From a virus (taxonomy: Duplodnaviria > Heunggongvirae > Uroviricota > Caudoviricetes): DNA of 8,451 nt. The notes under the pieces were generated by a model. The model saw only the letters and a list, made by a program, of their open reading frames with translations, was not told where the DNA came from and did no database searches. Where the stretch lies: positions 1 to 8,451 of IMG/VR virus record IMGVR_UViG_2548876857_000001; one strand, 5' to 3'. Below, in pieces: positions 5,323-5,890 of this stretch; the stretch's first letter is position 1; every line of letters starts with the position of its first letter. The translations under genes were made by a program, and so were the position numbers.

Positions 5323-5831
5323 GAGAACTAAACCTCACCAAAGAACAGCATGAGTGGCTGAATGGCTGGCTTGAACTGTGGGGCGCATGGGTTTATTCAG
5401 GTCGTCTGGAAAAGCGCATGAGCAGCGTAATAGCGAAGTTCATGGAGAGCGTAGAGCCGGGAAGAGTTATGACAAGGCCAATGTGCAATGATGATGATGG
5501 AATGTTGATTTCTCAGGTCGTCGATTCCGTCATGTACATTGACAAGAAAGCCTTTGGCATCCTCCTCAGCTACTACGCTCATGGTTCATCTAAGCGAGCA
5601 ATTGCATCCTACTATCACGCGACTGCAAAGCCACGCAAGATGTGTGGACGTGGTGGCGAGGGATGGAGAAAACCTTCACTGGCAACCTGTAGAAACGAAA
5701 TTGACGACATCCTGAAAGCGTCATTATTTGTTTTATACCAGCCAATGCAAAATGCTTTCAAAATGCGTAAACGTGTTGAGAAAGTTAAGCATGTTGCTGT
5801 TAAAAGCCTTGACATGCAATTAGCCATTTAG
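5313..5831 (+). CDS. Late-gene antitermination protein Q (QuuD/phage-82-type family)
   Basis: Sits between ninI and the late promoter/lysis cassette. Product has LELWGAWV and [12 protein letters not shown], resembling the ERWGAW...RPQCCDDDAMII pattern I recall from DLP12 QuuD. GTG start at 5313 is 7 nt after GGGAG; an internal ATG at 5418 is an alternative. Confidence 0.6.
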
Positions 5832-5838
5832 CCATAAT
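5809..5838 (+). promoter_or_regulatory. Candidate late promoter pR' (with presumed Q-utilisation region) overlapping the 3' end of Q
   Basis: -35 TTGACA (5809-5814), 18-nt spacer, -10 CATAAT (5833-5838). Position immediately after Q and before a terminator matches lambdoid pR'/qut/tR' architecture. Confidence 0.55.
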
Positions 5839-5848
5839 TAGAAGGTAA

Positions 5849-5890
5849 GCTGCCGTTAGTGACTCTTAAGTTGCAACGGTGGCTTTTTTT
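5849..5890 (+). terminator. Candidate tR' intrinsic terminator
   Basis: Imperfect stem GCTGCCGTT (5849-5857) / AACGGTGGC (5875-5883) with two G-U pairs and a large loop, followed by a 7-T run (5884-5890). Confidence 0.45.

Follow-up and report, generated by a model that had tools for sequence, protein, structure and literature searches.

The stretch of viral DNA analysed here (8,451 nt, positions 1 to 8,451 of IMG/VR record IMGVR_UViG_2548876857_000001; hereafter, the window) very probably contains the late-gene switch of a lambdoid phage that employs an antiterminator of the phage 21 Q family; we put this reading at roughly 93%. Promoter, Q binding site, pause signal, and terminator all lie within ∼80 bases, and every sequence feature of a Q21-type cassette is found among them. 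The assignment is based on the sequence elements themselves, on their register, on their identity or homology to the corresponding regions of phage 21 and Sf6, and on the co-variation of Q proteins with their sites in related loci. Judged by this strong homology, the element appears to be real and functional. It is also already known, being a sequence variant (the Sf6/L sub-type) of the switch that has been described in phages Sf6 and L. As the master switch of the late genes (lysis and virion), such an element sets the time at which an induced prophage kills its host. The mechanism is textbook knowledge, the phage 21 version has been solved at atomic resolution, and as a discovery the window carries little weight. 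What is added here is modest, namely, a family-wide co-variation of two residues of Q with two positions of its site, which suggests specificity classes that can be tested.

The Q gene, its putative late promoter, and the terminator

The Q gene (5313..5831, plus strand) begins with GTG, encodes 172 amino acids, and ends, according to the list of open reading frames, with a TAG stop codon at 5829–5831. Its product matched Pfam family PF06530, the Q21 family (E value of 1e-25), aligned without gaps to all 162 residues of phage 21 Q (86% identity), and retrieved the solved Q21 chains (PDB 6jnx/6p18) with an E value of 1e-92. Q21 (PF06530), Q-lambda (PF03589), and Q82 (PF06323) constitute distinct families (Yin et al, PMC9388147), of which the first is characterized by a sigma-R4-like fold with an interrupted helix-turn-helix (PMC9388147). 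In the Pfam search, only PF06530 and DUF1133 were matched by the window Q, and neither PF03589 nor PF06323 was. As the Q families of both the lambda type and the 82 type are absent, the label "82/21-type", which the first-pass annotation had attached to the system, has to be narrowed to "21-type": its latter half agrees with the family assignment, whereas its former half refers to an unrelated family.

Within the Q gene, on the minus strand at 5625–5638, the sequence TTGCGTGGCTTTGC fits the CII box TTGYN6TTGY and coincides, in the alignment, with the paQ antisense promoter and CII site that are annotated within the phage 21 Q gene; downstream of it, TGATAGTA is conserved as well. In the window as a whole the CII-box pattern was found twice, with 2.4 occurrences expected, so the pattern alone is not above chance.

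The putative late promoter, pR′, consists of the −35 hexamer TTGACA (5809..5814, plus strand), which aligns with the annotated −35 of phage 21, and the −10 hexamer CATAAT (5833..5838, plus strand), which occupies the position of the phage 21 −10 (AACACT). Because the Q reading frame continues to the TAG at 5829–5831, the −35 box and most of the spacer are located inside the last ten codons of Q. With a spacer of 18 nt and 11 of 12 positions matched, this was the top sigma-70-like match of the promoter scan in the window. A score of 11/12 was, however, reached at least once in 11% of first-order Markov simulations of the window, and the promoter match alone is weak evidence. Conservation in related loci raises the signal well above chance: a −35 box (TTGACA or TTGACT) followed at a fixed distance by a TANNNT element was present in 225 of 225. 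The transcription start is predicted at G5845 (plus strand; +1), 7 nt past the −10, from the alignment with the annotated start of phage 21, and is uncertain by 1–2 nt. As the spacer of phage 21 comprises 17 nt and its −10 differs, the basal strength and the exact start of the window promoter may differ from those of phage 21.

Directly behind the predicted start, the hexamer TAAGCT (5846..5851, plus strand; +2 to +7) resembles a −10 element and is identical to the annotated sigma-dependent pause element of phage 21; a TANNNT motif at the distance of the pause element was found in all 225 parsed loci. It overlaps the intrinsic terminator tR′ (5847..5890, plus strand), which is 100% identical to tR′ of phage 21 and consists of a hairpin (5847–5885) and a U-tract (5884–5890, seven T). 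Folding of 5843–5895 predicted an interrupted stem of 17 bp with a bulged A5858 and a CUUA loop (−20.2 kcal/mol; z = −3.9), and none of 200 shuffled sequences was as stable. A simple terminator scan had missed tR′ because its loop limit excludes a bulged two-part stem, and folding was used instead. In 23 distinct leaders that keep the T-run, 92.7% of the cells were paired, and 5 of the 15 pairs had changed on both sides (11 cells). None of 500 shuffles reached the observed pairing or covariation, and slid registers were only 27–65% paired. The predicted hairpin is thus supported by compensatory changes. As the 5′ arm of the stem contains TAAGCT, the same bases would be used twice, by sigma in the non-template DNA strand and by the terminator in the RNA. 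An Rfam search of 5600–6300 with an E-value threshold returned only the two tRNAs described below, and no described RNA family over the leader. The first-pass annotation had recognized the near-consensus promoter over the 3′ codons of Q and the T7-tailed hairpin close behind it, both of which are borne out; its list of parts lacked the pause element TAAGCT and the tandem-repeat Q binding element.

The leader varies among the relatives. In 16 distant loci from Yersinia, Rahnella, Photorhabdus, Xenorhabdus, Morganella, and Providencia, which share the conserved sequence TAAGNTGCCGTA.GTG..TCTTAAG, the first leader hairpin is kept without a U-tract, and a separate, typical terminator follows 60–100 nt downstream of it. 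Retention of the hairpin without its U-tract suggests that the leader may have a role beyond termination, and the compact 45-nt leader of phage 21, Sf6, and the window looks derived. In another 18 related loci, a cassette of ∼690 bp occupies precisely the interval that separates the pR′ −10 (CATAAT) from the pause element (in L137 on the minus strand as oriented, about 735 to 0 nt upstream of TAAGCT). It brings a −10-like TATGCT of its own, at the place that corresponds to +2 to +7, a separate terminator (GCCCACCTCCTGTGGGCTTTTTT), and an open reading frame for a 173-aa HNH/AP2-type endonuclease, after which the original TAAGCT-tR′ and the tRNAs follow. The cassette looks like a homing endonuclease that has inserted into the late leader and whose expression would require Q. 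In the upstream, nin-like region of the window, two further strong terminator-like hairpins with a T-run were observed on the plus strand, at 12–35 (AGGCCTGC...GCAGGCCT TTTT) and at 3008–3029 (AAACCCAGC...GCTGGGTTT TTT).

The predicted Q binding element and the residues that may read it

The spacer of pR′ contains a tandem 8-bp direct repeat. Its upstream copy (QBEu, AATTAGCC; 5818..5825, plus strand; core TTAGCC at 5820–5825) aligns column for column with ATTGAGCA of phage 21, and its downstream copy (QBEd, ATTTAGCC; 5826..5833, plus strand; core TTAGCC at 5828–5833) stands in the same register as AATGAGCA. The final base of QBEd is the first base of the −10 hexamer. The pause element begins 13 nt after this base, and 7 nt lie between the −10 and the pause element, both as in phage 21. 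In phage 21, two Q protomers occupy the TGAGCA direct repeat in the spacer, bases are read by H95, A124, R127, and R128, R113 resides in the minor groove, and neither the C:G pair at −21 nor that at −13 can be dispensed with (PMC6606751; 10.1101/651190). The matching C5824 (−21) and C5832 (−13) are both retained in the window. Among the eight DNA-contacting residues listed by Shi et al, six (S93, K94, R113, A124, T125, and R127) are kept in the window Q, and the two differences are H95R and R128N. Substitution of residues 95 and 128 of Q21 lowers binding and read-through (PMC6606751).

Site and gene are superimposed in the window: the −35 box together with the Q binding element makes up the last ten Q codons (5802–5831), and QBEd includes the TAG, unlike in phage 21, where Q ends before the −35. 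A common G/T polymorphism of QBEu (TTAGCC/TTATCC) corresponds to an Ala/Ser exchange in Q (LAI/LSI).

For the analysis of co-variation, loci were collected from a Q-protein search of viral contigs, from viral contigs scanned for the shared pause/terminator sequence, from one genome per species scanned with an alignment of nine diverse Q proteins, and from phage records. The first search with the window Q yielded only relatives that were 98–100% identical and therefore useless for this purpose; the diversity came from the other two scans. The final set comprised 225 parsed loci with 126 unique Q proteins in 32 clusters at 90% identity, from Escherichia, Salmonella, Pantoea, Yersinia, Photorhabdus, Xenorhabdus, Morganella, Providencia, and other genera. 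Two of the loci, labelled as metagenome-assembled genomes of Cellvibrionaceae (L205) and Segatella copri (L209), carry an enterobacterial phage Q region (98% and 85% identity, respectively) and are likely mis-binned phage contigs.

Two residues of Q changed together with two positions of the hexamer. Counted by cluster, and with shared ancestry ignored in all four counts, R128 went with G at position 2 (17/17) and N, S, or K128 with T at that position (16/16), while R95 went with C at position 6 (19/20) and H, Y, or L95 with A (13/13). The sole exception to the rule for residue 95 was a contig of Shimwellia pseudoproteus, which combines R95 and R128 with two copies of TGAGCA. All four possible cores occur (TGAGCA, TGAGCC, TTAGCA, and the TTAGCC of the window), the combination R95/N128-TTAGCC being the commonest found, and there are further classes in which R124 is accompanied by TGGACA, or E124/K128 by TTACCC. 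This pattern is what direct readout by residues 95 and 128 would predict. As these residues co-vary with the site, the window Q and its predicted site appear to be a matched, cognate pair, and H95R together with R128N may reflect retargeting rather than loss.

These observations may point to a simple, modular recognition code of the Q21 family, in which natural phages would carry at least four to six Q/site pairs that exclude one another and rest on a common pause-terminator module; we consider the odds of this generalization slightly better than even. Under such a code, R128 may specify G at position 2, and N, S, or K128 a T there; R95 may specify C at position 6, and H, Y, or L95 an A; residue 124 may read positions 3–4 (R with GA, E with AC), and the window may be a member of the R95/N128-TTAGCC class. 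If this is true, the specificity classes would insulate the late switches of co-resident prophages from each other and would provide ready-made orthogonal antiterminator parts. The idea that the TTAGCC class differs in specificity is already in print for phage L, whose genome paper named AATTATCC/ATTTAGCC as the likely Q site and pointed out differences from Q21 at three of six contact residues (PMC8022706). A family-wide two-position code relating Q to its site was not found described in the literature searched.

It could be argued instead that TTAGCC and TGAGCA are not separate specificities, that the window Q and Q21 work equally well on either, and that the differences reflect drift or the constraint of coding for Q. 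Such a view draws on the agreement with phage 21 in the essential C:G pairs and in six of the eight contact residues, on the overlap of the site with the C-terminal Q codons in the class of the window (an added coding constraint), and on the contig of S. pseudoproteus with its R95 next to a TGAGCA site. It is at odds with an association of residue 128 and position 2 that has no exception, with that of residue 95 and position 6, which has one, and with the occurrence of all four combinations in diverse genera. Moreover, both exchanged residues read bases in the Q21 structure and their substitution reduces binding and read-through (PMC6606751), and the authors of the phage L study also favoured separate specificities (PMC8022706). 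We thus regard the single-specificity view as unlikely, and separate specificities as the better reading of the data.

Predicted action of the switch and the genes behind it

By homology to phage 21, we infer promoter activity, a start site, pausing, termination, and Q-dependence for the phage of the window, and the switch may operate as follows. RNA polymerase carrying sigma-70 would initiate at pR′ near G5845; sigma region 2 would then rebind to the −10-like TAAGCT (+2 to +7), and the polymerase would pause and scrunch at about +14 to +18 (5858–5862). Without Q, transcription would terminate at the U-tract and a leader of ∼42–46 nt (a length predicted from the sequence) would be released, 5–9 nt before the 5′ end of tRNA-Asn. 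With Q, two protomers would bind to AATTAGCC/ATTTAGCC (5818–5833), exposed after promoter clearance, and dock onto the paused complex, the upstream one forming a ring in the RNA exit channel. The polymerase modified in this way would be unable to form terminator hairpins and would pass tR′ to transcribe both tRNAs, the lysis genes, and all that follows in the late operon. In vitro read-through of 21tR′ dependent on 21Q was reported by Shi et al (PMC6606751); Q-dependent read-through and the sigma-dependent pause at +14 to +18 have been demonstrated for phage 21 only (PMC6606751). Experiments on phage 21 have likewise established termination.

The first gene of the predicted late transcript is that for tRNA-Asn (GTT; 5895..5969, plus strand; ARAGORN and Rfam RF00005, 55 bits), which begins 5 nt past the U-tract. 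It is followed by the gene for tRNA-Thr (TGT; 5975..6050, plus strand; ARAGORN and RF00005, 61.5 bits) and by a lysis cassette (6169..7345, plus strand) in the gene order of phage 21. Over the cassette, the Pfam set PF04971, PF00959, and PF03245 was matched, and its genes encode an S21-type pinholin (6169–6384), an endolysin (6384–6881), and an Rz spanin (6866–7345). In another frame inside the Rz gene, an open reading frame for 61 aa (7098–7283, plus strand) takes the position of the Rz1 o-spanin of phage 21. The tRNA and lysis genes therefore do lie beyond the terminator, as the first-pass annotation had stated. It had also made them dependent on Q, and as the promoter scan detected no further promoter-like site on the plus strand between tR′ and the holin gene (5890–6169), that dependence can reasonably be assumed. 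It may not be absolute, since polymerases that arrive from the early operon, modified by an N-like factor, could pass tR′ in the absence of Q.

The window is a mosaic. From 5300 to ∼6112 it is 99.4% identical to Sf6; beyond that joint, Sf6 diverges and the window follows phage 21/SfI.

The same promoter and hairpin could in principle be unrelated to Q, with the hairpin and T-run terminating the early-right (Q) operon and the promoter being an ordinary constitutive one for the tRNAs or a small RNA. The hairpin is indeed located directly past the Q stop codon, the usual place for the terminator of an operon, and a promoter match of this quality is not rare by chance. Yet with a strong terminator 35 nt downstream of it, the promoter would serve no purpose unless an antiterminator acted there. 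Moreover, phage 21 and the window have conserved the pause element and the tandem repeat in precisely the same register, and the site co-varies with Q across the Enterobacterales. Together, these points render this explanation very improbable and speak for a switch operated by Q. Equally remote is the idea of a decayed or mismatched remnant, in a recombinant prophage whose late genes are silent because Q has ceased to match its site: the window is mosaic, has a recombination joint near 6112, and found no full-length match in the phage and complete E. coli genome collections, but its Q reading frame is intact, the joint is downstream of the tRNAs and thus outside the switch, and the Q-site pair is the commonest combination found, with at least 597 relatives of the window Q in IMG/VR, including those of the viable phages Sf6 and L.

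Comparison with known late switches

In lambda, tR′ lies ∼194 nt downstream, as against ∼45 nt here, and the first-pass annotation was correct in remarking that the short distance between promoter and terminator is unlike that of lambda. The logic is the same in lambda as in the window (PMC9388147): the promoter is constitutive and contains a site for Q, a sigma-dependent pause occurs close to it, a terminator follows, and the mechanism is that of a nozzle. Q-lambda, in contrast, is unrelated (PF03589), binds as a monomer to a site without a repeat, and needs NusA (PMC9388147). Phage 82 possesses a functional analogue at the same genome position, the difference again residing in the family of the protein (PF06323; PMC9388147), to which the window Q has no match.

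Among phages closer to the window, P22 was considered as a carrier of the same tRNAs and a related Q and was rejected, as its gp23 is lambda-type and no tRNAs are present there (PMC8022706). The "q21" allele of the Stx2c phage 2851 was likewise dismissed as a match to the window because it belongs to the true phage 21 class (TGAGCA, H95/R128); a comparative paper on pR′ of Stx phages (PMC6266700) contained nothing specific on Q21-type sites. Salmonella phage L has AATTATCC/ATTTAGCC as its proposed Q binding element and tRNAs that begin 46 bp past the start (PMC8022706).

Closest to the window is Sf6 (AF547987). The 141 aligned bases at 5760–5900 are identical except for one T in the T-run, and in the Sf6 record this stretch bears the annotations P R′ ("nearly identical to phage 21 late promoter"), "Sf6 qut site", and t R′. 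The pR′-qut-tR′ arrangement proposed in the first-pass annotation therefore coincides with an existing one, and it also agrees with the membership of Q in PF06530 and with the identity of 5846–5890 to the phage 21 pause element and tR′. The resemblance ends in the lysis genes: Sf6 has a lambda S-type holin, whereas past ∼6112 the window carries a pinholin lysis cassette of the phage 21/SfI type.

For phage 21, the curated record OL657228 gives the order −35, ATTGAGCA, AATGAGCA, −10, start, sigma-dependent pause element, and terminator, with PMID 1704887 given as the source of the terminator, 31663818 as that of the pause element, and 31455742 as that of the Q binding element. Comparison with this pR′ region, which had been suggested as a check, revealed that the window is identical over 5846–5890, that is, in the pause element and the terminator, and also in the −35, and that spacer and −10 differ (18 versus 17 nt; CATAAT versus AACACT). 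Both phages share the Q family (86% identity), an 8-bp direct repeat whose tandem copies take up the same register of the spacer, and, downstream, tRNA-Asn, tRNA-Thr, and then S21-type lysis genes. They differ in the core of the repeat (TTAGCC in the window, TGAGCA in phage 21), in the corresponding Q residues (R95/N128 versus H95/R128), and in the loop 111–119 of Q, and the window Q, which is 10 residues longer, reads through the −35 and the binding site.
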